Source of the DNA: a virus | Taxonomy: Duplodnaviria > Heunggongvirae > Uroviricota > Caudoviricetes | Virus record (IMG/VR): IMGVR_UViG_3300012940_000021 | Span: 63,912 to 127,911 of that record | Direction: 5' to 3' (one strand) | DNA length: 64,000 nt | In this document: one piece after another, positions 2,741-63,966 of the stretch | How the letters are laid out: each line of letters starts with the position of its first letter | Numbering within the stretch: position 1 is the stretch's first letter | Position numbers and translations under genes: made by a program | Notes under the pieces: model-generated | Told to the model about the DNA's origin: nothing | Seen by the model: the letters and a program-made list of their open reading frames with translations, nothing else | Databases searched by the model: none

Positions 2741-3120
2741 CCTGCCAGTCCCTTCTTGACGGCGGCGATCCACTGCTCGTGGAGGACTCCGAGGCCAGCC
2801 ATGAAGTCGTGGTTGCCGTAGTGCTCGTCCGGCTCGCGCCGCTGCTCGTAGATCGCGTAGTCCACGGGGTTGTTCGGCCCTGTCGAGGGTCCGCCGTACT
2901 CGATGGTGCCCTCCCAGGTGTGATCGAGCTTGTCGGTGGAGGTCTCCTCCTTGCCGGACCCCTTCAGCGAACCGGTCTGGACGTGGACCTGGGCCTGGGT
3001 GATGCCGAAGCCCTCGCTGAGGACGGCACCGAGCAGAGCCTGGGTCTTCGCGTCGGGCATGCCGATGATCCGATCCAGCTCCTTGTCGATCTCGCTCCAG
3101 TCGCTCTCGATGCGGATCAT
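2737..3120 (-). CDS. hypothetical protein (127 aa), head-tail region
   Basis: MIRIESDWSEIDKE...; ATG at 3120 overlaps TGA of upstream gene (ATGA). Confidence 0.55.
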   Translation of the reverse strand: MIRIESDWSEIDKELDRIIGMPDAKTQALLGAVLSEGFGITQAQVHVQTGSLKGSGKEETSTDKLDHTWEGTIEYGGPSTGPNNPVDYAIYEQRREPDEHYGNHDFMAGLGVLHEQWIAAVKKGLAG

Positions 3121-3602
3121 GGCTCGTCCTCGATGGGGTCTTCGATGGGGTCTTCGATGGGGTCTTCGATGGGGTCTTCGCCCGGCCAGTTGTTCTGGGT
3201 CAGCTCCTGGCCGGTCTCGGTGATCTGGACCTCGATGTGATGCCGGGAGGAGAAGCCCACGGCCTCGTCCGGGATGGCTCGGATCTCGAAGGTTCCCTCG
3301 ACCGGAATCTCGTTCTGCTCGTTGGGGATGGCGACGATCCGGTCCCCCGCCTTGATCGGAGCGTAGGGGTAGGTGAACATGACGCCGATCCGGTCTGGAG
3401 CGCGCCCGGCGACCGGAGCCGGTGGGATGTCCTTCCCCTGCCGGATGAAGTTCATGTCGAGGCGGCACTTCAGGAAGTGCAGCATGTCGTTGAGCGCCGG
3501 GTCTTCGTCCGTCGCCTGGGCGTAGTCCATCACGGCCTCGCCGTCGGTCACGACGAGCTGGATGCGCTCGACCCGCACCGCCGAGTTGAACAGGTGGTCC
3601 AT
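3117..3602 (-). CDS. hypothetical protein (161 aa) with C-terminal (EDPI)x4 repeat
   Basis: complete ORF, coupled to neighbours; ends ...EDPIEDPIEDPIEDPIEDEP. Confidence 0.6.
   Translation of the reverse strand: MDHLFNSAVRVERIQLVVTDGEAVMDYAQATDEDPALNDMLHFLKCRLDMNFIRQGKDIPPAPVAGRAPDRIGVMFTYPYAPIKAGDRIVAIPNEQNEIPVEGTFEIRAIPDEAVGFSSRHHIEVQITETGQELTQNNWPGEDPIEDPIEDPIEDPIEDEP
3128..3180. repeat. perfect tandem 12-bp repeat (gatggggtcttc x4) encoding EDPI x4 at the C-terminus of gene 3117-3602
   Basis: directly visible in sequence 3132-3179. Confidence 0.9.
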
Positions 3603-9361: not shown

Positions 9362-9657
9362 CAGAACTCCTTCATCGTCGTCTTGATGGCCTTCTCCTGC
9401 TCCGCCGAGAGGGGGGCGAACCGGAAGCGCCGACCCTCGGAGTGGAAGACCCAATCGCCGTCCTCGCGGACCATGATGTCCTCGGGGTAGAACACCATGT
9501 CCTTCATCGGCAGCGCCCAGCCGATGACGACCGTCTTGCCCTGGTCTTCTCCGACCTCGACATCGACCATCTCGAAGTTCGGGCGCTCGCCCTCCTGGGC
9601 GACGATCACACCGTGCGGGAAGGCCCGGTGAAGCTCCTCCTGAGTCACTTCGTCCAC
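9361..9657 (-). CDS. hypothetical protein (98 aa)
   Basis: ORF overlapping 13 nt with the end of the giant gene. Confidence 0.5.
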   Translation of the reverse strand: MDEVTQEELHRAFPHGVIVAQEGERPNFEMVDVEVGEDQGKTVVIGWALPMKDMVFYPEDIMVREDGDWVFHSEGRRFRFAPLSAEQEKAIKTTMKEF

Positions 9658-12600
9658 TGAGCCTTCACCTTCGCAATCGCTGCCTGCAAGTTTACGCGCA
9701 TGACGAACCGATCCTCGATGGGCAGTCCTCGGAGCATGGCGAAGCCGAGCGCCTTCATGCGCTGGATGGCCTCGTTCCGCTTCTCGGCGTTGTCGAAGAC
9801 GAAGATCTCCAGGTGGTCGAGGATCGACATCGCGTTCGGAACCATGGTCTCGTTGCTCGATCCGGTGAAGCTGGTCAGCGCCTTCAGCGGGTCGTACTTG
9901 TTCTGGCTCTGCTGGTCCGTGCGATCACCGAAGCGGTCGCCGGAGAACGAGTAGGTGTCCACCTGAGTGAAGACCGACGGGTTCCAGTAGGCCACGTGCT
10001 TGCCGTAGATCGAGCCGGAGAACTCGACGCTCGCCCCGGTGTGCGCGATGCGCGTGAAGACGCTGTTCGCGCCACCCGTCCCCTGGTCGGAGCCGGAGGA
10101 GGCACCCTGCTTGAAGTAGCCGAGGATGCGCAGACGCTCCTCCGTCGAGAGCATTCCACCCGACGTGATGTAGCGCAGGAGCGAGTCGTCCTTGCCGTTG
10201 TTGCCGATGGCCACCATGTGGCCCTTCTTCAGCACCTGCTCCAGGTCCACATCGATGCGCTCGTAGTACGGCTTGCCCGTGGCCAGCTCCGGGTTGGCGA
10301 GGTCCATGTGGTTGAACTTCGGCATGTGCTTGCCCTGGGCGATGAACGAATCGACGCGATCCTTGCCCCAGGCTTCCTCCGAGATGCTGCGGTAGAACGC
10401 CAGCTCTTCGGTGTCGCTCATGCTCAGGCCGATGCCTTCGATGAGGGTCCAGTCGGTGAGGTTCTCCCCGTTCGGTCCCTTGACCGTCTGCTTCTTGTCC
10501 TTCAGCTTCTTCAGGGCGCTCTTCACCGTGGCTGGGGCGCTCGACTCCGCGTAGGTGAAGATGACGCGCTCCCACATCGCACGCCAGTAGTTCAGCTCCG
10601 CCTGGGTCTCATCGGCCCCCGTGAGGTCGAGGCCCATGAGTTCGAGCTGGGACTGCACCCGAGCGAGCGAGGCTTCCTTGTCCGGCCCGACGAGGCGGAA
10701 CGACACGGTGCCGCGCTGCGACCGAGCGGTGTTCGTGCTCGTGGAGTTGCGGAAGAAGATGACCTCGCCGGACGGCAGCGTGATCCGGTACTCCTTGCCG
10801 GTGTGCCCGGACGTGCCCTCGTCCTTCGAGTTCTCGACCTTCAGACCACCCTCGTTGAGGGTGCCGCCCTTGCCCGCCGCAGACTGGACGGTGTACAGGA
10901 CCTCCTTGACCGCCTCCTGCGGCTCGGCCTCGACGTTGTTGGTCCAGCCGTCCGGCAGGGCGTTGGGGTCCACCGGCAGCGCCCCGACCGAGACCTCGGA
11001 CCCCTTGGACGAGAGCCACTGCCCGTTCGCCAGCTCGGTGTAGGTGATGCCGTCGGGGCTGACGATGATCCGCCCCTCGACCTTCGGAGCGAGGCCCTGG
11101 AAGACCGTGAAGTCGCCCTTGTTGGTCGTGCCTCCCTCGGAGATGGCCGTCTTCACCTTGCCGATCTGGGTGAAGTAGTGGTCCAGCATCATCTTGTACT
11201 GGGAGAGGTACTCCGGCGCGACTCGCTTGCCCGACGGGAACTCCACGTAGTCGGCGTTGCCCTCTGGCTCCAGGTCCGGCTTCCAGAAGGCGGCGTCCGC
11301 CAGGAGGGTCTGCTCCAGGCTGTTGAACGCCGAGATGATGTCGGGGTCGTACTCCTTGTCCACCGAGTTCTTGGTGACGTTCTTGCCCGCCGCCGTGATG
11401 GTGGACTTCCAGTCGTTCGTCGTTGGGAACTGTGCCTGGTTCAGGTAGATCGGCTGGGTGTTGACCGAGTTGACCTGAACCTGCTGCGCCTTCGGCTGGA
11501 GGAAGGCCAGCAGCTTGTTCTGGGCGAGGTCCCCGAGCGTGATCTGGCCCTTGTGCAGCTCCTCCCCGGTCTCGTTCTGCTCGGTCCAGAGCAGCGAGTG
11601 GCCGTTGTGGATCGAGGCGCTTCCGTGCAGCGGGGCGGCTCCCCAGACCTTGGTCTCGGCTGCCTTGTCGAGAACGCCCGGCTCGTCCCAACCGGAGATG
11701 TGCTCCTCGAAGACGGTCGGCGGCTCCTCGGGGAGTCCTCCGAATCCGGCGTCCTGGAAGATCTTGTCCCACATCTGGTCGATCTGCTCGACCAGCTTGC
11801 TCTTGCGGTGGAGGAACGCCTTCACGAGCTGGTCCGCGTTCGCCGGAGCATTGCGGTGCGTGAAGTGGGTCATGTAGTCCGGCACGTCCCAGTTCGTGCG
11901 GAACTCGACCGCCTCGCGGACCATCTGCTCGGCAGCGGCGTCGTCGGACTTCTGGATGCGGGACGCCGCCTTGCGGGCACCCTGGTACGCCTTGACGGCG
12001 GTCTCGTAGTCGATGGTGCCGTTGCGGATCTTGTCGTAGAGCTGGGTGTAGACCAGGGTGGCGTTCGTGTGCGCCGAAGCGTCCCCAGAGATGCCGTTCC
12101 AGTTGCCGTAGACGAAGAACGCCCGCCCCTTGTCGATGCCGACCACTCCGCCGCTCGGCGTCATCAGGAGGTTGTCCGGGTGGGTGTCGTCGTTGTCGAG
12201 CGCCCAGTCGAGCACGTGCTCAGCCGCGATGGCCGCGAGCTGCTTCTCGTTGAGGGTCTCCATTTGGATCTCGCCATCGCCGTTACCGGCGAACGACCCT
12301 ACGTTGTCCACGAAGTTCTGAATGAGTCCCTCGTGACCGTCCTCGGTGGTCGCCATGACCGTCTTGGCCGACTGGAAGCCCCACATCCGAGCCAGCTCGT
12401 TGGCCTTGTGCTCCATCTGGGCGCGGGCCTTCTGGTCCTCGCTGTTCCAGGGCTTGAAGATGTACTTCCGGTCGAACTGGTCCTTGACGAGCCAGACCTC
12501 GTGGCTGCCCTTGTCGATCTGCTCCACCTTGAAGTACTTGGGCTTGTTCAGCTCCTCCAAGTACGCGGCGTGCTTGGCGTCGAAGTAGGCGGCGACGATC

Positions 12601-15600
12601 TCCTCGGACTTGTACTTCGTGCTGTAGTCGGTGTTCGAGGGGTCCCACTCCAGACCCCCGACCGACGTGTCGTAGTTGGAGTAGAACTCCTTGAAGTCCG
12701 GGTCCTGGAAGTGGTCCTTCGCCCAGTCGGTCGTCACGTCGTAGGGGGTGGCCTTCCAGATGCTGCCCTGCGGCCACGGAGTGTCCGGGTTGTTTTCGAA
12801 AACGTGGTCGTAGCTCTTGGCGGGCTGCACGTCGTCGGTCCAGGTCGGAGCATCCGAGAGCGCGGCGTCGCCGTTCTGCTTGCGGACCTGCGCGAGCGCG
12901 GAGAGCTGGTCCACCTTCTCCTTCTGGCCCTGCTTGTGAGCGAGGACCCACTGGCGCTTCTCCGCGTTCGACAGGAACGTCGGGTTCTGCATCTGGGCCT
13001 TGATGAGGTAGTTCTGGATCTCCGGGAGGGATGGCTCGATGCCCGGCGAGGTCCAGTTGCCCTCCACCGGCTCACCTGCCGGAATCTCCCCCTCGACGGC
13101 AGGCCCCCAGGTGATCTGATGCGTGGCCTCGCTGCCCTCGTAGCCGGGGTGCAGGTAGCCCGAGTTGTGGGCCTTCCCCTCCTTGGCAGCCGCCGAGACC
13201 TCGATCTGGTAGAGCGCCTTGAAGTCGCCCTTCTTGAACGCCGCGACCCACTTCTGGCGCTCCCACTTGTCCATCTTGGTCAGGTGCTGGCCGATGATCT
13301 TGCCGTCACCGATGGACGCCGACGCCGCCTTGATGTACGAGCCGAGGGAGTTCTTGTCGTAGGAGTTGACGGTGAGCGCCGCGACCGAGGCGGGGAACTT
13401 GGCGTAGCCCATCTCGTTCCACTCGAAGAGGTCGGCGGCGTTCGCCTCGGGCGTGCTGGTGTCCACCCCGGAGAGGAGGCCGTCCATGGCCTCCTTCAGT
13501 GCCTGCACCGCGTTCTCGGGGGTGTTCTCCGTGAAGCCGTTCTCCGCACGCCACTTGACCCAGAGCGGCTGCTGCCAGAAGACGCCGAGGCTCTTCAGCT
13601 TCTCGCCCATGGCGTAGGCGCTCTCGTCCGTCACCGTGTCGAGGTACTGCCGAGCCTGCATCAGCGACGGGACGGTCGTCTGCGAGCCGAAGAAGAACAC
13701 CGACCCGGTGTAGCCCTCTGGCAGCACGGACATGCCGAACTTGTCCGTGAGCTGCCCCTTCGAGAAGAGCGTGTTGACCTTCTTCTTGTCGAACTCCACC
13801 GGGTCCTGGAGGCCGTGGCTGAGGACGTGCGAGTAGTAGGTGGCCCAGATGTTGGGCTGTTCCTCGGGAGGCTTGACCTCCTCCCCGGTCTTGGGGTCCG
13901 TGAAGTGCCACTTGCCGTCGGAGTGCTTCGTGGCCTCGTAGGGCTGCACGTACTCGCCGTCTTCGTAGTGCGAACTCGTGACCTCGTACTTCGCTCCCAC
14001 GCCTGCGGCGTTCAGCCAATCGGTTGTCGGGTAGCCCCCGATCTTGACCCCGGTCATGGCGGTCACGTCGGTCTTGGGCTTGAAGATCTTCGCCGTGTCG
14101 GTCGAGACCTCGTAAACCGCCGTCTTGGGGTTCTGCGGGCTTCCGGCGAAGTAGGTGCCCGGAGTGAGATCCGACACGACGACGGGCTTCTTCGGCGCGG
14201 CCTTCGCCGTGGGCGACGGGATGTCGTCGGGCATCCCGTGGTACTCCTTCATGCCCTTGTCGTAGTTCGTCTTCACCGCCTTGGCCGTGAGCTTCGACAC
14301 CCCGCCCTTGGTGTTGACGTAGACGCCCGTGCCGTCGGCGGCGACGACCATGTACGCCTTGCCTCCCGGCGAGGAGTACTTGCCGGGCACGATCTCCGGG
14401 TTCTCATTGAGGGTCGGGTTCTCCACCGGGGAGAAGTCCCAGTCGCCCTGCATGGCGTTGAACATCTCGGAGTCGTTCATGAACCCGAAGCCGTTGTCGG
14501 AGAGGTTGTCTCCCGTCTTGGCGTCGTAGATCGTCCAGTGGTCCTCCCCCTCCTTCACCGCGACCATCTGGAAGTCCGTGCCGGGCGCACCGTTCTGAGC
14601 CTTGGTGCCGACCGGAGCGTCCTGGACCACCTTCAACGAGAAGTCACCGTCGTCCTTGCTCAGCTCCTCCTGCTGCTTGTCCTGGAGCGCCGGAGGGGTC
14701 TTCGCGTAGTCGGGCAGCACGTCCGGCTTCGACTCGATGCGGAGGAACCCGTTGTCGATGGCCCCCGAGAAGGAGTCCTCGCCCAGCACATTTCCACTGC
14801 CGTCGTCGGTCCACTGCGCCGCGCTGATCTTGGTGTAGGTGTGCGGAATCCCTCCGGTGCCCTGCCAACGCACCACGGTTCCCACAGGGAGACCCGACAG
14901 CTCTTCGAGGCTCTTCACCTTCGGGTGCTGGATGTCGGTCTCCGTGCGGACCAGCTTGGCCTTCAGGAGGTCGATGAACTTCTGCTTGGTGACCGTCTTG
15001 TCCTTGTCGAAGCCGACGATGGAGTTCGGGTTGAGAGACCCGAGAGCGTTCATCTTCTTGTTCAGCTCGGACTTGAAGTTCTTGCCCTGGAACGATTCCA
15101 GGATGTCGATGGCCTGCTGGACCTGGGACATCGTGAACTCTCCGCCGTCCATGCCCTGCACGCCCGTGCTCTTCGGCGTCTTCGAGCCGATCCAGACCTT
15201 GGGGGCGTTCTCCTCCTCGACGCTCGTCCCTTCCTCGATGCCGATGGAGTCCTTCAGGTACTTGATGACGGCAGGCTTGGCCTTCAGATCCGGGTACTTG
15301 TTGAGCGCGGCGACCTTCAAGGACTCCTGGTTCTCGGCGCTCTTCAGCGGGTTGCTGTCCGGCAGCGCCTTCAGGCCGTAGCTGACGTGGAAGGACGAGT
15401 GCTCCTCCAAAGCCTTGTACGCCTCCGCGATCTGGATGGAGGACATGGCCGGAGCACCTGGCCAGAGCTGCTTGTCCTTGGCTCCGAAGCTGCTCTCCGG
15501 GGCCTTCGGCGCGACGTAGCGCAGATTCCCCGCCGCGACGGCATCGCCCATGTCGCCGGGCGTGAACGCCAGGTTCGGCCACTTCGGATCGTCGGCGGGA

Positions 15601-18600
15601 GCCTTCCAACCCTCCTCGGTCTTGTCCACGAAGTTGAGGAAGTTGCCCGCCTGGTCGAACATCGCCAGCCGCTGTCCCACCGGGAAGGCGTTGACGTGGG
15701 CCATCTTCGTGATGGCGTCGCCCTCGGCGTAGCCGAACTCGTTGACCTCGCTGGGGGACGGGACGTTCGGCTCCAGGGCAGGAAGCGAGAAGACGGTGAA
15801 CTTCTGGCTCTTGGCCGAGCCGGAGAGCTGCGACGCCGCGTAGACGTTGCCCCCCGGCGTGAGGAAGGCCCCGTTGTCGAGCTTGGTGTAGTAGGTCTTC
15901 GACCCGTCCTTCTTGGTGTACTCCAGCTTCGTGCCTGGCAGCAGCGACTCCAGGTCCTCGACGCTCGTGATGGTGTGACCCTCGCCCCACTCCCAGGGAG
16001 CCTGCTCCTCAGCCGACTGGCTCTGGAGCGGAGCCGGGACGTAGTAGTGCTTGTTCCCCCCTGGAGCGAAGAAGATGTCGTTGAGGGTGAGCATCCCGCC
16101 GTCCAGTCCAGACGGAAGCAGGGCGCTCCACTCGTCGCCGTCCTGGGCCTTCGTGTAGGTGATGATCTTGCCCTTGCCGGTGACCTCGAAGATCTGGTCC
16201 CCCGGCTTCGGGGCGTGGGTCACGATGTCCTTGTTGACCAGGACCGCGTTGGTGGGCACCCCCTCAGGCAGGTCGTCGTCCGTCGCCGGAGCCTCCGACT
16301 CGCTCGTCTGGTCGGGCACCAGATGCGGAGACTCCTCCGGCAGCGGGAGCGAGTAGTGCTCCGCGATGTACTTGCGACGGGCGAGGAGGGTGTTCGCCAT
16401 GGACTCGTCCATGCCGTACTCCGAGACCATCTCCTGGATGCGCTCGGGCGACAGGTTGACGATCCGCTGAGCACCGTCCAGCTCCTCGGCGTAGGTCATG
16501 TCCGATCCGAAGACCGCCGCCTTCTTGCCGGTGCGGTAGCTCTCCAGCTCGGTGACGCTCGGACCGAAGTCGGACCCCTTCGCGCTGCCCATGGCGCGGT
16601 ACTTCAGCGCGCCGCCGTTGTCGATGCGCCACGGGTTGCCGTCCTTGTCCGTGAGCACGTTGTCCCACGACAGTCCGAACACATCCCAGTTGGCCAGCCA
16701 GGCGTCGATGGCGAAGTCGCGTCGGACCTTGGAAAGCCACACCTGGTCGTTGAGCCGGGCCTGCATGTCCTGCTTGCCGTCCACGATCTTGGAGTAGATC
16801 TGGCCATCCGAGGCGACATCGACCTCGGGGGCGTTCACGCCCAGCTCGCGGTAGAGCGCGTTGGCCAGCGCCTCGTTGTTGCCGTGATCGGCGGTCTGCG
16901 GCTTCTTGACGTAGTACTTCGCCGGGCCGTCCGGCGTCGGCAGCTCGTAGAGGCCCCCCGGATTCGAGCCGCTCTGTCCACCGATCTTCTTCGCGCCCTC
17001 GTCCGTGATGAGACCGTGGCTGGGGATCGGCTCCTGAGTGGCCGGTGCCGGACCAGCCGTCAGGGCAGCGCCGTACTGCGCCAGCTCCTCATTGGAGTAG
17101 GTGTTGCCGTTCGCCCACGACAGCCACTGCCCGTTCGACTGCTTGGTGAGAGTCACGCCGTCGAGGTTCACCTGAGCGCCGGTCGGCGCGATGGCCAGGT
17201 GGTTGCGCTTCTGATCGACGGTCAGGTCCGGCGAGTTGAAGATCGGGGAGAAGCCCGAGATCGGCTCTCCAGGGTCGGCGGGCTGCTCCGGCTCCTGGGT
17301 CCCCGTCGGGGTCACGAGCGTGAGCTGATCGCGCATCGCGTACATGACGCCGTGGGACACAGGCTTCTTCTTGCCGCCCTGCGTCCAGGTGCCGTTCTCC
17401 TGCTTGCGGAACGGGACCTGACCCTCCTCCGGGATGAGCTTCGAGCCGACCGGAGCGTTCACCAGTGCGGTCGAGAACTCGACATCCGTCATCTCGGCCA
17501 ACGGCTTGTCGGCAGCCGGAGCCTCCTGAGGCTGCTGCTTGGTCGAGTTGCCCTTGAAGGCGTAGAGCTGCTCCGGCTGGTACTCGCCCTCGGAGGCCAT
17601 GACCGCCGTCATCAGATCTTCTTCGGTGACTCCGGCCTGCGGGTGGGTGAGGTTCTTCCACGAGCCGTCCGGCTGCTTCTCCACGAGGTCCGCCGCCTCA
17701 TAGTGCGGGGCGTCGCCGTCGGCGGTGTTCTCCTCGAAGTCCGGGTCGTAGCCGATCAGAATCTTGTCGCCCGGCTGGGCGTTCGTGATGTCGTCCTGGG
17801 TCGCCTCGGCGGTGTAGTCGTAGTCGCCGGGGAAGAGGTAGTGCGGGGATTCCTCGCTCAGGATGTCGAGCGGGGCCATGTCCTCGTGCCAGATGAGATC
17901 CGTCGAGTTGACGTTCGGCTCGTCCTCATCGACCTCCGGTGGCAGCGGCTTCGACTGCTTGGTGGCGTGGATGTAGACCTTCTCGGCACCACCGTCCACG
18001 ACCATCGCGTTCATGGCGACCTGGCCGAACCAGTCCTCGTCGTCATCGACGTTGGACCAGATGGCGAGGCCGTCCCCGGAGTCGGTCAGTTCGTACTCGG
18101 AGACCATCGCTCCGTTGTCGAAGGCCACGAGCACGCGGTCACCGATGGTGGAGACCTGCATGTGGCCGGGCGTGGCCAGCTCGGTGTAGTCGCCCTCGCC
18201 GGGCACGAGCTTGGAGGTCGAGCGGGGCTTGTCCCGCTTCGGCAGCTCCGGCGCGGGGCCATCTCCGATGTCCGGCGCGAGGATGGCGACGTTCTCCGAG
18301 GTCAGGTCGTTGCCGGTCTTGCTGGACTTCCAGGTCCCGTCCTCGTTCTTCGTGAGCGTGGCCTCGCTGTCCACCATGTAGATCTGGTGGCCGACCTCCG
18401 CGCTGTCGAGGAGTCGCTGAACCTCCGCCACGTTGGAGTTGCCGTTGATGGCGGAGATGTCCTTCGGCTTCGGACGCTTCGGCTTGGCCGGTGCCGGAGA
18501 GGGCTGCTCGGGCTGGGGTCCGTCCGCCAGCCCCTCCGGGCCGATGGCAGCCAGGAGCGCGTTGGTCGAGACCACGACCCCCGTGCTGCTGTCCCAGTCG

Positions 18601-20075
18601 CCGTCTTCACGCTTGGTGAACTCCCGGTCGCCATTCGTCTGGTGGATGACGTGACCGACTTCAGCCGCGTCGAGCAGCTCCTTGGTGTCGGCTTCGGAGA
18701 GGTCGGGACCGAGCGCGCTGAGGTCCGGCTGCTCAGTGGACTCCTGCGGAGCGGAGGAGTCCCCACCGTCGAGTGGAGAGCCAGCCGGAGCCTTCGGCTC
18801 CTTGCCCTCCTTGGCGATCTTCACGTCGCTGTTGTTGACCGCGATGGCGGACTTGAACGACTCGGCGTCGAGCTGGCCCCCGAACTGATTCGTCCAGGCG
18901 TCGCCCTCCTTGTCCTTGGTCCAGTTGGTCTTGTTTCCAGCGGGCGACGTGTACGTGACCTGAGCGCCGGGCAGCGCCTTGTCGATCCAGTCGTTCGTCG
19001 GGGTGTCGCCCACGGAGACAGGCGCGGGCTTGGAGGCTGCCTCTCCGTCGAGCGGATTCACCGACTTGCCATCGAGCGGGTTGTACTCCGGCTCCTCGGG
19101 AGCACCGATGGAGAGGATGCTCTTCAGGTGCGCGAGGTTGTCCGCGCTGACGCCCTGAGTAGTGCCCTCGTCCTGTCCGTCGAAGGTGCCTTCCGAGTTC
19201 TTCACGAAGGGGCGATCCGCCACCATGACGGTGACCCCCTCGGGAAGCCCTTCGAGCGCCTGCAACGCCTCCTCGAAGTTCATCTCCCCGAAGTTCATCG
19301 CCTCGGTGTTGGCGAAGGTCTCCTCGACCACGGAGATGTCGTCGTCGCTCGTGTCGGGCACGAGGTCACCGGAGTCGTAGAGGTCCTGGAGATCGGCGTC
19401 CTTCAGTCGCACCCCAAGATCCACGTGCTCCCAGGTGTCGTCCGCGAGCTTCTTGAACTGAGGGGTGCCTCGACTGTCCACGAGGGTCGCGCCCACCTTC
19501 AGGGCGTTGAGGCTGACCGACCCGCTCGTGGCCTCGAACTCCTCGACGGAGTAGTTCTCGTCGCCTTCGAAGTCCGGTCCGAACTTGTTTTGGAAAACAG
19601 CGGTGAGAGTCTTCGGGATCTCGATCTCGCCAGCCTCGTTGAAGGCGTGAACGGACCCGTCGGGGGTGACGACGTAGGCCATGCCCGGCTGAGAGGCCGG
19701 ACGGATGAGCTTGGAGCCGTTGGGCGCGGTGTACTTCGCCTTGCCGATGCTGAAGTGCTTGTTGCCCGTGAGCGTGGACTTCTTGATCTTGAGCTTCAGC
19801 TTCGGCTTCTCGGCAGGCTTCGGCGCGTTCTTCTCGGAGGCTGCCTTGCCGGAGATGGTGCCCTGCGACATGAAGCCGCCTGCGGCGCTGCCCGAGGAGA
19901 TGGCTCCCTGCGGAGGGGTGAGGCCCTGGGCTGCGGCCTCGGCGTTCTTGGCGTCGATGATGTCCTTGGTGATCGGAGCGCCGATGGGCAGCCCGTAGAA
20001 CTGAGCACCCTCCGGGGTGCGCACTCGACGGACGGCCAGCTCCAGGACCTGGGACTCGAACTGTTCGACGCTCAC
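9645..20075 (-). CDS. giant multidomain protein (~3,476 aa from GTG at 20075; longest ORF extends to 20273 = 3,542 aa). Candidate virion-packaged 'polyvalent' protein: N-terminal capsid-targeting-like motif, >=10 copies of a ~35-40-aa repeat, two HipA/APH-like kinase catalytic-loop motifs
   Basis: uninterrupted 10.6-kb frame directly downstream of MuF; GTG with GGAG SD after conserved motif+palindrome; motifs HVLDWALDNDDTHPDNLLMT...GGVVGIDKG and AIDAWLANWDVFGLSWDNVL...RIDNGGAL. Confidence 0.8.
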   Translation of the reverse strand: MSVEQFESQVLELAVRRVRTPEGAQFYGLPIGAPITKDIIDAKNAEAAAQGLTPPQGAISSGSAAGGFMSQGTISGKAASEKNAPKPAEKPKLKLKIKKSTLTGNKHFSIGKAKYTAPNGSKLIRPASQPGMAYVVTPDGSVHAFNEAGEIEIPKTLTAVFQNKFGPDFEGDENYSVEEFEATSGSVSLNALKVGATLVDSRGTPQFKKLADDTWEHVDLGVRLKDADLQDLYDSGDLVPDTSDDDISVVEETFANTEAMNFGEMNFEEALQALEGLPEGVTVMVADRPFVKNSEGTFDGQDEGTTQGVSADNLAHLKSILSIGAPEEPEYNPLDGKSVNPLDGEAASKPAPVSVGDTPTNDWIDKALPGAQVTYTSPAGNKTNWTKDKEGDAWTNQFGGQLDAESFKSAIAVNNSDVKIAKEGKEPKAPAGSPLDGGDSSAPQESTEQPDLSALGPDLSEADTKELLDAAEVGHVIHQTNGDREFTKREDGDWDSSTGVVVSTNALLAAIGPEGLADGPQPEQPSPAPAKPKRPKPKDISAINGNSNVAEVQRLLDSAEVGHQIYMVDSEATLTKNEDGTWKSSKTGNDLTSENVAILAPDIGDGPAPELPKRDKPRSTSKLVPGEGDYTELATPGHMQVSTIGDRVLVAFDNGAMVSEYELTDSGDGLAIWSNVDDDEDWFGQVAMNAMVVDGGAEKVYIHATKQSKPLPPEVDEDEPNVNSTDLIWHEDMAPLDILSEESPHYLFPGDYDYTAEATQDDITNAQPGDKILIGYDPDFEENTADGDAPHYEAADLVEKQPDGSWKNLTHPQAGVTEEDLMTAVMASEGEYQPEQLYAFKGNSTKQQPQEAPAADKPLAEMTDVEFSTALVNAPVGSKLIPEEGQVPFRKQENGTWTQGGKKKPVSHGVMYAMRDQLTLVTPTGTQEPEQPADPGEPISGFSPIFNSPDLTVDQKRNHLAIAPTGAQVNLDGVTLTKQSNGQWLSWANGNTYSNEELAQYGAALTAGPAPATQEPIPSHGLITDEGAKKIGGQSGSNPGGLYELPTPDGPAKYYVKKPQTADHGNNEALANALYRELGVNAPEVDVASDGQIYSKIVDGKQDMQARLNDQVWLSKVRRDFAIDAWLANWDVFGLSWDNVLTDKDGNPWRIDNGGALKYRAMGSAKGSDFGPSVTELESYRTGKKAAVFGSDMTYAEELDGAQRIVNLSPERIQEMVSEYGMDESMANTLLARRKYIAEHYSLPLPEESPHLVPDQTSESEAPATDDDLPEGVPTNAVLVNKDIVTHAPKPGDQIFEVTGKGKIITYTKAQDGDEWSALLPSGLDGGMLTLNDIFFAPGGNKHYYVPAPLQSQSAEEQAPWEWGEGHTITSVEDLESLLPGTKLEYTKKDGSKTYYTKLDNGAFLTPGGNVYAASQLSGSAKSQKFTVFSLPALEPNVPSPSEVNEFGYAEGDAITKMAHVNAFPVGQRLAMFDQAGNFLNFVDKTEEGWKAPADDPKWPNLAFTPGDMGDAVAAGNLRYVAPKAPESSFGAKDKQLWPGAPAMSSIQIAEAYKALEEHSSFHVSYGLKALPDSNPLKSAENQESLKVAALNKYPDLKAKPAVIKYLKDSIGIEEGTSVEEENAPKVWIGSKTPKSTGVQGMDGGEFTMSQVQQAIDILESFQGKNFKSELNKKMNALGSLNPNSIVGFDKDKTVTKQKFIDLLKAKLVRTETDIQHPKVKSLEELSGLPVGTVVRWQGTGGIPHTYTKISAAQWTDDGSGNVLGEDSFSGAIDNGFLRIESKPDVLPDYAKTPPALQDKQQEELSKDDGDFSLKVVQDAPVGTKAQNGAPGTDFQMVAVKEGEDHWTIYDAKTGDNLSDNGFGFMNDSEMFNAMQGDWDFSPVENPTLNENPEIVPGKYSSPGGKAYMVVAADGTGVYVNTKGGVSKLTAKAVKTNYDKGMKEYHGMPDDIPSPTAKAAPKKPVVVSDLTPGTYFAGSPQNPKTAVYEVSTDTAKIFKPKTDVTAMTGVKIGGYPTTDWLNAAGVGAKYEVTSSHYEDGEYVQPYEATKHSDGKWHFTDPKTGEEVKPPEEQPNIWATYYSHVLSHGLQDPVEFDKKKVNTLFSKGQLTDKFGMSVLPEGYTGSVFFFGSQTTVPSLMQARQYLDTVTDESAYAMGEKLKSLGVFWQQPLWVKWRAENGFTENTPENAVQALKEAMDGLLSGVDTSTPEANAADLFEWNEMGYAKFPASVAALTVNSYDKNSLGSYIKAASASIGDGKIIGQHLTKMDKWERQKWVAAFKKGDFKALYQIEVSAAAKEGKAHNSGYLHPGYEGSEATHQITWGPAVEGEIPAGEPVEGNWTSPGIEPSLPEIQNYLIKAQMQNPTFLSNAEKRQWVLAHKQGQKEKVDQLSALAQVRKQNGDAALSDAPTWTDDVQPAKSYDHVFENNPDTPWPQGSIWKATPYDVTTDWAKDHFQDPDFKEFYSNYDTSVGGLEWDPSNTDYSTKYKSEEIVAAYFDAKHAAYLEELNKPKYFKVEQIDKGSHEVWLVKDQFDRKYIFKPWNSEDQKARAQMEHKANELARMWGFQSAKTVMATTEDGHEGLIQNFVDNVGSFAGNGDGEIQMETLNEKQLAAIAAEHVLDWALDNDDTHPDNLLMTPSGGVVGIDKGRAFFVYGNWNGISGDASAHTNATLVYTQLYDKIRNGTIDYETAVKAYQGARKAASRIQKSDDAAAEQMVREAVEFRTNWDVPDYMTHFTHRNAPANADQLVKAFLHRKSKLVEQIDQMWDKIFQDAGFGGLPEEPPTVFEEHISGWDEPGVLDKAAETKVWGAAPLHGSASIHNGHSLLWTEQNETGEELHKGQITLGDLAQNKLLAFLQPKAQQVQVNSVNTQPIYLNQAQFPTTNDWKSTITAAGKNVTKNSVDKEYDPDIISAFNSLEQTLLADAAFWKPDLEPEGNADYVEFPSGKRVAPEYLSQYKMMLDHYFTQIGKVKTAISEGGTTNKGDFTVFQGLAPKVEGRIIVSPDGITYTELANGQWLSSKGSEVSVGALPVDPNALPDGWTNNVEAEPQEAVKEVLYTVQSAAGKGGTLNEGGLKVENSKDEGTSGHTGKEYRITLPSGEVIFFRNSTSTNTARSQRGTVSFRLVGPDKEASLARVQSQLELMGLDLTGADETQAELNYWRAMWERVIFTYAESSAPATVKSALKKLKDKKQTVKGPNGENLTDWTLIEGIGLSMSDTEELAFYRSISEEAWGKDRVDSFIAQGKHMPKFNHMDLANPELATGKPYYERIDVDLEQVLKKGHMVAIGNNGKDDSLLRYITSGGMLSTEERLRILGYFKQGASSGSDQGTGGANSVFTRIAHTGASVEFSGSIYGKHVAYWNPSVFTQVDTYSFSGDRFGDRTDQQSQNKYDPLKALTSFTGSSNETMVPNAMSILDHLEIFVFDNAEKRNEAIQRMKALGFAMLRGLPIEDRFVMRVNLQAAIAKVKAQWTK

Positions 20076-20087
20076 GACGCTCCAAAA

Positions 20088-20128
20088 TCTTCTGGCCAGA
20101 AGAATGTCTGCTCTGTGATATCGGCCTC
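20088..20128 (-). promoter_or_regulatory. left-arm conserved motif copy 5 (AGAGGCCGATATCACAGAGCAGACA) followed by 16-bp perfect palindrome TCTTCTGGCCAGAAGA, upstream of the giant gene
   Basis: seen in sequence. Confidence 0.6.
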
Positions 20129-20349
20129 TACTCGTCTTGCCGAACGGCCCCTGGAATCGCCTCGACCTTCTCCACAACCTCCGAGATCTCACCTTCGAGC
20201 AGGAGACCGCTTCGATAGACCGTCGTGGCGTCGAGTCCACCGAAGCGGTAGCTCTTTTCGGTGGTTCGAGCATCGAGAACTACGGCCAGCAGCCCAGCCG
20301 CTGCCGACGGCACCGAGTCGAAGAAGAATCTTGTGGTCGAACTAGCCAT
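20128..20349 (-). CDS. hypothetical protein (73 aa)
   Basis: ORF overlapping 8 nt with MuF stop. Confidence 0.45.
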   Translation of the reverse strand: MASSTTRFFFDSVPSAAAGLLAVVLDARTTEKSYRFGGLDATTVYRSGLLLEGEISEVVEKVEAIPGAVRQDE

Positions 20350-31340: not shown

Positions 31341-31360
31341 GAGTCTGGCACTCTAGCAGG

Positions 31361-31430: not shown

Positions 31431-31796
31431 ATGGCCCAGCTCCCCGAAGGTCTCACCCAGAAGGACATCGACCGGCTCGCGCAGCTCGACGCCGGGATGA
31501 AGAAGCTCCAGGACGAGTACAACGCCCTGAAGGACAAGGTGAAGCGTGCCCATCAGGACGCGGGCCTCACCGGCAAGCAGACGCTCGTCTACCCGAGCGA
31601 CAAGTACGGGACCGTCATCGTGGACCTCAACGAGCAGAAGCGCGTGGACACCGAGGCCCTCATCAAGGCGCACCCCTTCGACAAGTTCCCGCAGTACTGG
31701 CGGATGCAGTTCGACCAGGCGGCGGTGGACGAGACCGTCCTCAACAAGTTCCGCACGAACGTCATCCCGACGCTCTCGATCAAGGTCGCGCAGTAG
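31431..31796 (+). CDS. hypothetical protein (121 aa)
   Basis: first gene of plus-strand island, strong SD. Confidence 0.65.
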   Translation: MAQLPEGLTQKDIDRLAQLDAGMKKLQDEYNALKDKVKRAHQDAGLTGKQTLVYPSDKYGTVIVDLNEQKRVDTEALIKAHPFDKFPQYWRMQFDQAAVDETVLNKFRTNVIPTLSIKVAQ

Positions 31797-33473: not shown

Positions 33474-33515
33474 GGCAATTGTCATCTATGCGATAGGGTG
33501 TCAATTGCAATCCCC
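33474..33515 (+). promoter_or_regulatory. promoter/operator region P2 with inverted pair GGCAATTGTCA ... TGTCAATTGCAA upstream of surface-protein gene
   Basis: two copies of the TTGCAATTGTCA-family element in opposite orientation; SD GAAGGGAGA before ATG 33553. Confidence 0.5.
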
Positions 33516-35672: not shown

Positions 35673-35954
35673 ATGGCCGATCTGACCGTCGAGAACATGT
35701 TCACCGAGCGGAGCTACGCCATCGAGGACCGGCTCCCCGTCGAGGCGCTCTCGGCGCTCGACCGCAAGCGGATGCTGGTCCACGTGCTGGCCGACATCAC
35801 TCAGAAGATTCTGAGCGCTCCAAGCGCCAACCCCGTGGGCCTCGCCATCACGGTCACTGTGGTGCCCGGCATCTGCCCTGAGCGCAAGCCGGATCTGCTG
35901 GTGACGGCGACGTGCCCTCAGTACGAGCTGGACGACTCGTTCTTCTCGCCCTGA
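35673..35954 (+). CDS. hypothetical protein (93 aa), last plus-strand gene of island
   Basis: SD GAGAGAAGA; complete ORF. Confidence 0.5.
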   Translation: MADLTVENMFTERSYAIEDRLPVEALSALDRKRMLVHVLADITQKILSAPSANPVGLAITVTVVPGICPERKPDLLVTATCPQYELDDSFFSP

Positions 35955-38637: not shown

Positions 38638-38658
38638 AGAAGATTGCAATTGCTACTA
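38638..38658 (-). promoter_or_regulatory. P3: TTGCAATTGC operator-like element / -35-like TTGCAA upstream of operon 38630->36182
   Basis: member of 5-site TTGCAATTG(T/A)CA family. Confidence 0.4.
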
Positions 38659-39183
38659 CTTCAGCCACGGGTTGCGCATCTGCTGGACCACGCCGATGAA
38701 GCCGTGCTCCCGGTCCTCCACGAAGAGCGGGGTCAGCATCGTCTTGGTGTCCTCGCCCACCTTGAAGATGACGGTCTCGACCTCGTAGGCCGACAGAAGA
38801 TCCGAGAGGTAGTGGTGGTTGACCACCCACTCCCGAGCCTTCCCGTTCCCGGCCCACTGGCACTCGATGACCTCCTGGCTGGCGTTCCCCGCCGCATCCT
38901 GCGCACGGACGGCGAGGGACCAGACGATCTGGTTCTGGGCGTCCCTCGGGCCGGGAACGAGGCGCAGAGCGATGGCGGCGGTGTCGGGGTCCGCGTTGAT
39001 GCGCACCCGCTTGACGGACTCGGCCAGCTCCAGTCGGTCCACGGTGAGTGAGAACGGATTCGAGAACGCCGCGCCGAAGATGAGGGTGTCCAGTTCTGGG
39101 AAGGGGATGAGCAGCCGCTGCGCGACAATGAAGTCCTCCCCGATTCTGAAAACGAGATGGATGTCGTCGTAGCCCATCTCCAT
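38656..39183 (-). CDS. dnaN: sliding clamp (DNA pol III beta-like) domain III portion (175 aa); same frame as 39220-39900, separated by one in-frame TAG
   Basis: beta-clamp domain III-like sequence; 36 nt (12 codons) in frame between the TAG and this ATG. Confidence 0.6.
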   Translation of the reverse strand: MEMGYDDIHLVFRIGEDFIVAQRLLIPFPELDTLIFGAAFSNPFSLTVDRLELAESVKRVRINADPDTAAIALRLVPGPRDAQNQIVWSLAVRAQDAAGNASQEVIECQWAGNGKAREWVVNHHYLSDLLSAYEVETVIFKVGEDTKTMLTPLFVEDREHGFIGVVQQMRNPWLK

Positions 39184-39219
39184 GAACTCGGCGTCGGTCT
39201 CGGTGAGCGCCTTCAGGAG

Positions 39220-39900
39220 CTAGTCGGTCACCTTCAGAGGGATCGAGACATCGGTGGTTGTAGCGACTACTCCTAGGTCGGCTCGGTGCAATCGCCCCCC
39301 ATCACACCCGGTAACGGTTTGGTTACGAACCTGGACCTGGGAGAGGGCGAGCCGGGCACTCGTGGACGCCGCCTTGCGGGCGATGCTCAGGGCATTCACG
39401 AATGGCCCGATGGCGACTGTCTGCAACTCGATGCCGCTCACGTCCAGGAGGGTGCTCAGCGAGTCCCCCACCGGAATCTGAACGGTCCACTGTGCCCGGC
39501 CCGACCGGATGATCGCCGCCGTGCCGATGACCTCGATTTTCGCGGTCGCGGACGGGGCGAGCTTCAGGATGTCTGAGATGCGCTTGGCGGGGACGAGAAC
39601 TGCCCCGGCCATGAGCACCGAGATGTCGTCCACGACCACGGAGACTGTCTGGTCGCCGTCGCTGGCGGTGATGCGCAGGTGCGCCGCCTGGGTGTTCGTA
39701 GTCTGGACGGCCTCCAGCAGCGCGTGAGCGGTGCCGGGGATGACCTCGCGCTGTGGGAGGACGGCGGCGGCACGCGAGAACAGGGCGAGGAGCTTCGACA
39801 CGCTCGCCTTGATGCTCAGCCTGGCATCGACGGGCAGGATCTCCGGGACGAACTCCGAGTCCTCGTGCTCCATCTCCACCAGCTCGGAGAGGTCAGGCAT
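39220..39900 (-). CDS. dnaN: sliding clamp domains I-II portion (226 aa) ending at in-frame amber codon
   Basis: LKLAPSATAKIEV...IRSGRAQWTVQIPVGD typical beta-clamp; stop TAG at 39220-39222. Confidence 0.65.
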   Translation of the reverse strand: MPDLSELVEMEHEDSEFVPEILPVDARLSIKASVSKLLALFSRAAAVLPQREVIPGTAHALLEAVQTTNTQAAHLRITASDGDQTVSVVVDDISVLMAGAVLVPAKRISDILKLAPSATAKIEVIGTAAIIRSGRAQWTVQIPVGDSLSTLLDVSGIELQTVAIGPFVNALSIARKAASTSARLALSQVQVRNQTVTGCDGGRLHRADLGVVATTTDVSIPLKVTD

Positions 39901-63918: not shown

Positions 63919-63934
63919 GGTGCCCTTCCTGCTC

Positions 63935-63966
<32 letters not shown>

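Follow-up and report, generated by a model that had tools for sequence, protein, structure and literature searches.

The stretch of DNA analysed here (the window) covers 64,000 nucleotides of a phage of the class Caudoviricetes, has a G+C content of 65.5% and originates from a 127,911-nt JGI/IMG contig. On its minus strand, positions 38656 to 39900 hold a phage beta sliding-clamp gene, recognized from its translation, its match to PF00712 and its homologues, whose 414 codons plus stop are interrupted at codon 227 by an in-frame amber codon (TAG, 39220 to 39222, minus strand). The frame opened by the ATG at 39900 reads ...DVSIPLKVTD and then meets this TAG (39222-39220). As written, the N-terminal fragment is 226 aa long (39220 to 39900, minus strand) and, according to the ORF list and the AF2 domain map, comprises domain I and the first three-fifths of domain II. 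Exactly 12 sense codons, LLKALTETDAEF, separate the TAG from the first ATG past it (39183-39181, MEMGYDD...), which lies in the same frame and opens an ORF of 175 aa (38656 to 39183, minus strand) covering the last three strands of domain II and domain III. This frame ends at a TAG (38658-38656) that is followed directly by another one (38655-38653), the tandem TAG TAG at 38653 to 38658 (minus strand) being the natural terminator of the clamp gene. Translation and the ORF list showed that the original prediction was exact regarding the in-frame TAG that splits the gene, its coordinates and the 12 sense codons leading to the ATG. The TAG at 39222-39220 is the sole stop in the 64 kb that has the same homologous protein on both of its sides.

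About 27 codons located just upstream of this TAG (39250-39330, minus strand) are rich in A/T-ending codons (GTT CGT CAA GTT TGT GAT CGA TTG CGA CTA GGA GTA GCT ACA GAT). This patch encodes the most conserved motif of the clamp family, TGCDGGRLHR, and has a codon-model score of -0.38, versus +0.78 downstream. It is unrelated to the TAG, since it is identical in the intact allele described below.

The joined 414-residue product matched the Pfam domain PF00712 (DnaN N-terminal domain) with an E-value of 5.4e-8 (33.5 bits, for a cutoff of 24.4), and the clamp-family profile matched 51 solved beta-clamp (DnaN) sequences from the PDB, the best E-value being 3e-18. By its sequence, the joined product belongs to the bacterial-type beta sliding clamps of the DnaN family, with a fold modelled on a close homologue. 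A protein search returned 144 clamp homologues at E-values of 0.001 or better, 120 of which were listed and compared, the best match among these 120 being 74% identical. All but one of the 120 listed homologues (119/120) were one-piece chains of 380-440 aa, many of them found on contigs of 110-140 kb. The lone short homologue among them (P0119, 228 aa) begins around position 187 in the window protein, away from the break, and is carried by a 2-kb contig; it is probably a sequence cut off by the end of its contig. No stop and no split was found at the position of codon 227 among the 120 listed homologues. In the column corresponding to the TAG, these 120 homologues display Glu (113), Gln (4) or Asp (3). 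As Gln occurs naturally in four of them, an allele with CAG at this position is plausibly a working, tolerated form.

The structural context of the break was derived from an AF2 model of the homologue that is 74% identical to the window protein (P0001, pLDDT 87.6), and not of the window protein itself. This model consists of one chain with three tandem repeats of a double beta-alpha-beta-beta-beta unit, and Foldseek aligned it with DnaN structures at TM values of 0.79-0.87. Domain II extends from about residue 159 to 262 and the linker between domains II and III from about 263 to 283. The equivalent of codon 227 belongs to the second alpha-helix of domain II (residues 223-235), some 35 residues before the linker, and the HMM alignment to solved clamps also placed codon 227 in a helix ('...PrKgvtEL...'). 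The original prediction had put the TAG at the linker between domains II and III, but both the model and the HMM alignment locate it inside a helix of domain II. For the same reason, the proposed separation of domains I-II from domain III does not hold, the break being predicted to cut helix 223-235 within domain II. Bacterial DnaN and the phage-encoded copies have in common the three-domain clamp fold and a length of about 413 aa; the family to which the window clamp belongs differs in an extra N-terminal segment of about 25 residues, and the window copy differs in its interruption. Domain III of solved DnaN clamps supplies one face of the dimer interface as well as the partner-binding cleft.

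Microbacterium phage Magritte (133 kb) was the only relative found among deposited phages; in the terminase, portal and neighbouring genes it shares 75% DNA identity with the window. Its clamp, gp247 (OR553905; 4009-5247 of the fetched part L001), is a single protein of 412 aa annotated as 'ASCE ATPase'. This is a probable mis-annotation, as its orthologues match DnaN clamps by sequence and by modelled fold. Gene order around the clamp is conserved between the two phages: PD-(D/E)XK nuclease, Dam methylase, two small ORFs, clamp, small ORF and metallophosphatase.

A neighbouring gene of 124 aa was found identical on an ENA metagenome contig of 128,478 nt (ERZ27256362 k141_473844), on which the clamp is called as a single 414-aa gene. 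In a 1,351-base alignment of the window with this contig spanning the clamp gene, the lone mismatch was TAG in the window and CAG in the ENA contig, and both sequences agreed at 10,373 of 10,375 bases around the gene. Exact protein look-up retrieved the intact 414-aa clamp from both Logan (SRR7976140) and ENA, while the 226-aa and 175-aa pieces were found only in JGI/IMG, on one 127,911-nt contig. The uninterrupted full-chain frame, absent from the window clamp because of the TAG at codon 227, is present in the ENA and Logan assemblies. The comparison was extended to about 47 kb using the ENA contig and the Logan contig SRR7976140_23838 (60.8 kb), and just three SNPs and one difference in a 12-nt repeat unit separated the window from the ENA contig. 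The private SNP in the clamp gene affects the first base of codon 227 (T on the minus strand at 39222, A on the plus strand; C in the ENA contig, and an identical intact protein in Logan) and exchanges Gln for a stop. A second one, at 35727 (plus strand), lies in a 93-aa ORF of unknown function (35673-35954), where GAC replaces the CAC of ENA and Logan (His to Asp); exact look-up found the Asp variant only on the same JGI/IMG contig and the His variant in both Logan and ENA. The third, at 10553 (minus strand), changes codon 3241 of a giant ORF from GAC (Asp, in ENA and Logan) to TAC (Tyr). The repeat difference, at about 3130-3180 (minus strand), amounts to four units in the window versus three in the ENA contig. 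Its 12-nt unit, GAAGACCCCATC (Glu-Asp-Pro-Ile), is present four times at the C-terminal tail of a minus-strand gene ending near 3117, making up a small tandem repeat of variable copy number within the coding tail.

At the level of sequence, the TAG is therefore a single-base C-to-T difference private to one assembly, two other assemblies of essentially the same actinophage genome of about 128 kb (hereafter the twin genome) being intact. An intron, an intein or another insertion at the break was rejected, the DNA being colinear with the intact allele. Exact 41-base patterns with N at the variable base had no match in GTDB genomes, JGI metagenome contigs or IMG/VR that would reveal other carriers of either allele, and clamp peptide patterns retrieved no relative from IMG/VR. 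The gene-position index contained no record for the 226-aa, 175-aa and 93-aa products, the 3,542-aa ORF or a 283-aa ORF, and no literature was found on the sequencing run, the assembly or Magritte.

An in-frame TAG facing a Gln codon of a near-identical genome recalls those phages in which TAG has been reassigned to Gln, namely crAss-like phages, Lak phages and phAss-1 (bioRxiv 10.1101/2021.08.26.457843, PMC9523058, PMC10607447). Code 15 has been validated in crAss-like phages (PMC9523058), and phAss-1 displays in-frame TAGs in 41 ORFs (PMC10607447). The clamp TAG might accordingly be decoded, either as Gln by a phage tRNA (code 15) or by an efficient programmed readthrough, giving a full-length clamp; this was judged very unlikely. 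In its favor, the sister allele encodes precisely the amino acid assigned to TAG in recoded phages (PMC9523058), and this phage group possesses large tRNA arrays lying outside the window (31 tRNAs for the twin genome, 26 for Magritte), several members of which, including tRNA-Gln(CUG), are one base away from the anticodon CUA; an odd tRNA with an 8-nt anticodon loop is also encoded near the array. However, stop codon usage speaks against it. The 84 genes called in ENA over the region of the window end with TGA (70), TAG (12) or TAA (2), and none contains an internal stop. The original prediction regarded TAG as rare, yet this codon terminates about 14% of the genes, including the clamp gene itself, in tandem. 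Recoded phages carry dozens of in-frame TAGs, enriched in late genes, and avoid TAG as a terminator, whereas here only one TAG lies inside a gene in 64 kb and many genes still terminate with TAG. The interrupted gene serves replication and is not a late gene, and the phage is an actinophage of high GC content (65%). A codon-model scan of every stop in the window with coding-like flanks detected no other interrupted gene. The same-frame TAG junctions that it returned at 2231, 3606 and 56741 are ordinary gene ends followed by new starts, those at 2231 and 56741 having a Shine-Dalgarno sequence ahead of the start, and the junction at 31794, where two high-GC3 frames abut, was checked separately and is likewise an ordinary gene end and start. 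Genome-wide recoding was ruled out by this stop-codon census together with the lack of other in-frame TAGs, and no relative has a stop at the codon-227 site.

The search for an amber-suppressor tRNA, which the original prediction had suggested, revealed none in the sequences scanned. No tRNA gene is present in the 64-kb window, the array of its own contig lying outside of it. The array of the twin genome was reached via its Ro-like protein, and scanning 21.6 kb spanning it revealed 31 ordinary tRNAs, including Gln(CUG), Gln(UUG) and Glu(CUC), with no CUA anticodon among the 32 tRNA genes of the array region. The scanned parts of Magritte (about 109 of 133 kb) contained 26 ordinary tRNAs and no suppressor. 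A suppressor encoded in the unseen half of the JGI contig, for instance a tRNA-Gln(CUG) mutated to CUA, might read TAG-227 as Gln, but the chances of this are slimmer still; if true, it would represent an incipient first step of TAG-to-Gln reassignment in a high-GC actinophage still terminating with TAG.

An irregular tRNA-like gene of the twin genome (L009 17554-17628) is isolated from the main array, lying about 8 kb downstream of it. It scored 48.5 bits against the Rfam tRNA model, was left unassigned by ARAGORN and displays an 8-nt anticodon loop, AGUUAUAG, a G3-U70 acceptor pair, the alanine identity element, and no encoded CCA. Its role as an amber suppressor is unsupported, since AGUUAUAG fits U33 and a purine at position 37 only with the anticodon UAU.

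The original prediction had listed a sequencing or assembly error, a genuine nonsense mutation, possibly followed by re-initiation at the adjacent ATG, and amber readthrough or suppression. The first possibility and the point mutation as such are supported, given a C/T difference against two assemblies and no split relative, while readthrough, suppression and restart are not. A functional two-piece clamp, in which translation would stop at the TAG and restart at ATG 39183 and the two chains would assemble, is most improbable. Both pieces are indeed extended open frames that keep the same register, with an ATG close by, and the gene caller of the source recorded the 226-aa and 175-aa pieces as separate genes. 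However, pairing with the anti-Shine-Dalgarno sequence in the 20 bases before ATG 39183 reached -3.0 kcal/mol (-2.5 before ATG 39177), for medians of -8.2 kcal/mol at 82 true starts and -3.2 at internal in-frame ATGs. The pairing at ATG 39183 is weaker than that of 91% of true starts, and at ATG 39177 weaker than that of 93%. Re-initiation at the adjacent ATG, which has no Shine-Dalgarno sequence, is thus typical of an internal ATG in its signals and unsupported. Moreover, a restart at Met-240 would delete residues 228-239, most of the modelled domain II helix, so that the break falls inside a helix and not at a domain boundary, and no split is conserved: none of the 120 listed homologues is split here, and the start of P0119 does not coincide with the break. 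The intact allele being otherwise identical in DNA, nothing in the sequence is adapted to a split.

The TAG at codon 227 is most probably a plain premature stop and not a case of programmed decoding, and it reflects a mistake in the consensus if not a defective variant that truly exists. That it belongs to a real variant haplotype of the phage population, with a premature stop in a normally one-piece clamp gene, has about an even chance of being right and is somewhat more likely than a base-calling error, because the TAG is accompanied by two further missense SNPs private to this assembly, as well as by a change in repeat number. A consensus or assembly error, the phage itself having CAG and the T being an artefact of base calling, deamination damage or error correction, is nonetheless a substantial possibility, if short of an even one. 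CAG was found in the two other assemblies, and C to T is the classic change caused by cytosine deamination, which counts toward an error. Artefactual reads did enter the contig, as it holds a run of 29 G and unrelated sequence at the place where the other two assemblies stop or diverge. Every private difference alters a protein, and all three private SNPs are protein-changing (Q to stop, H to D and D to Y), as random errors also would be. If the clamp is essential, one would not expect a clamp-null phage to reach consensus frequency in a natural sample. On the other hand, both JGI and ENA recovered the genome of about 128 kb almost from one end to the other, with a Logan contig of 60.8 kb, which suggests a good depth; three consensus errors in 47 kb would be unusual at such depth, and the clean difference of one 12-nt repeat unit looks like strain variation.

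Under the reading of a real variant haplotype, a C-to-T transition would have turned the Gln codon 227 (CAG) of a one-piece clamp into an amber TAG. An origin from GAG, considered because the relatives have Glu, was dropped, as the twin genome has CAG, from which TAG is reached most simply. If the ancestor was instead amber and Gln a pseudo-revertant, the same two steps would be involved, but this is less likely since the defective allele must then persist. With the TAG read as a stop, the product would be a 226-residue fragment devoid of domain III and of half of domain II; such a fragment would for this reason be unable to close the ring, and the allele would presumably be null or very leaky. 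Its persistence might be explained by complementation from co-infecting intact genomes, by use of the DnaN clamp of the host, or by low-level near-cognate readthrough, in which tRNA-Gln(CUG) would restore the exact wild-type residue.

Nothing in the break of the window clamp falls outside known kinds; most probably it represents a common type of nonsense mutation or else an erroneous base. Amber mutants of T4 gene 45, which encodes a sliding clamp, are classical nonsense mutants of a phage replication gene, and CAG to TAG is a textbook route to amber. In both cases a one-base change produces a UAG inside a phage clamp gene, whose product is truncated when no suppressor is present. The T4 ambers were selected in the laboratory, whereas the amber of the window comes from a metagenome assembly, is a putative allele and has no known suppressor host. 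Should the amber allele prove genuine and frequent in the sample, the implication would be that this group of actinophages can dispense with the clamp encoded by the phage or has it complemented. A TAG facing a Gln codon can mimic recoding, and caution is called for: here, sister assemblies reveal a private difference of one base. The two 'genes' of the IMG record are best regarded as a single, disrupted clamp gene, and studies of the clamp family should use the intact sequence, with Gln at residue 227.

The end of the window has features of its own. After a poly-G tract of 29 bases (63935-63963) come 37 bases (to 64000) that bear no relation to the twin genome. The ENA contig diverges exactly at 63934/63935, into an 851-nt fragment with a DctM-like gene, and length arithmetic indicated that the Logan contig ends inside the G run. 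Poly-G is typical of two-colour Illumina chemistry, and the poly-G end of the window has the appearance of a linear phage genome reaching its physical terminus, with assembly junk attached.

The giant ORF that carries the SNP at 10553 (9645-20273, minus strand) has 3,542 codons and is called as 3,476 aa in the twin contig. On its upstream side lie terminase and portal-like genes, on its downstream side those for lysin, scaffold-like and capsid proteins, and it has no Pfam domain on record. The protein of Magritte at the matching position, gp17, measures only 1,991 aa. The strand opposite the giant ORF contains a stop-free shadow frame of 3,510 codons.

Finally, the motif CAATTGCAAT (at most one mismatch) occurs in four copies in the window, at 31360, 33502, 38643 and 48490, for 0.55 expected. 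Those at 33502 and 38643 each occupy a gap immediately upstream of a gene, one of them directly after the clamp gene, and those at 31360 and 48490 are located in stretches devoid of a high-GC3 reading frame. A similar motif, ATTGCAATTGC, was found upstream of a gene in the twin genome (L009, about 17650), and CAATTGCAAT may be a phage promoter or operator element.
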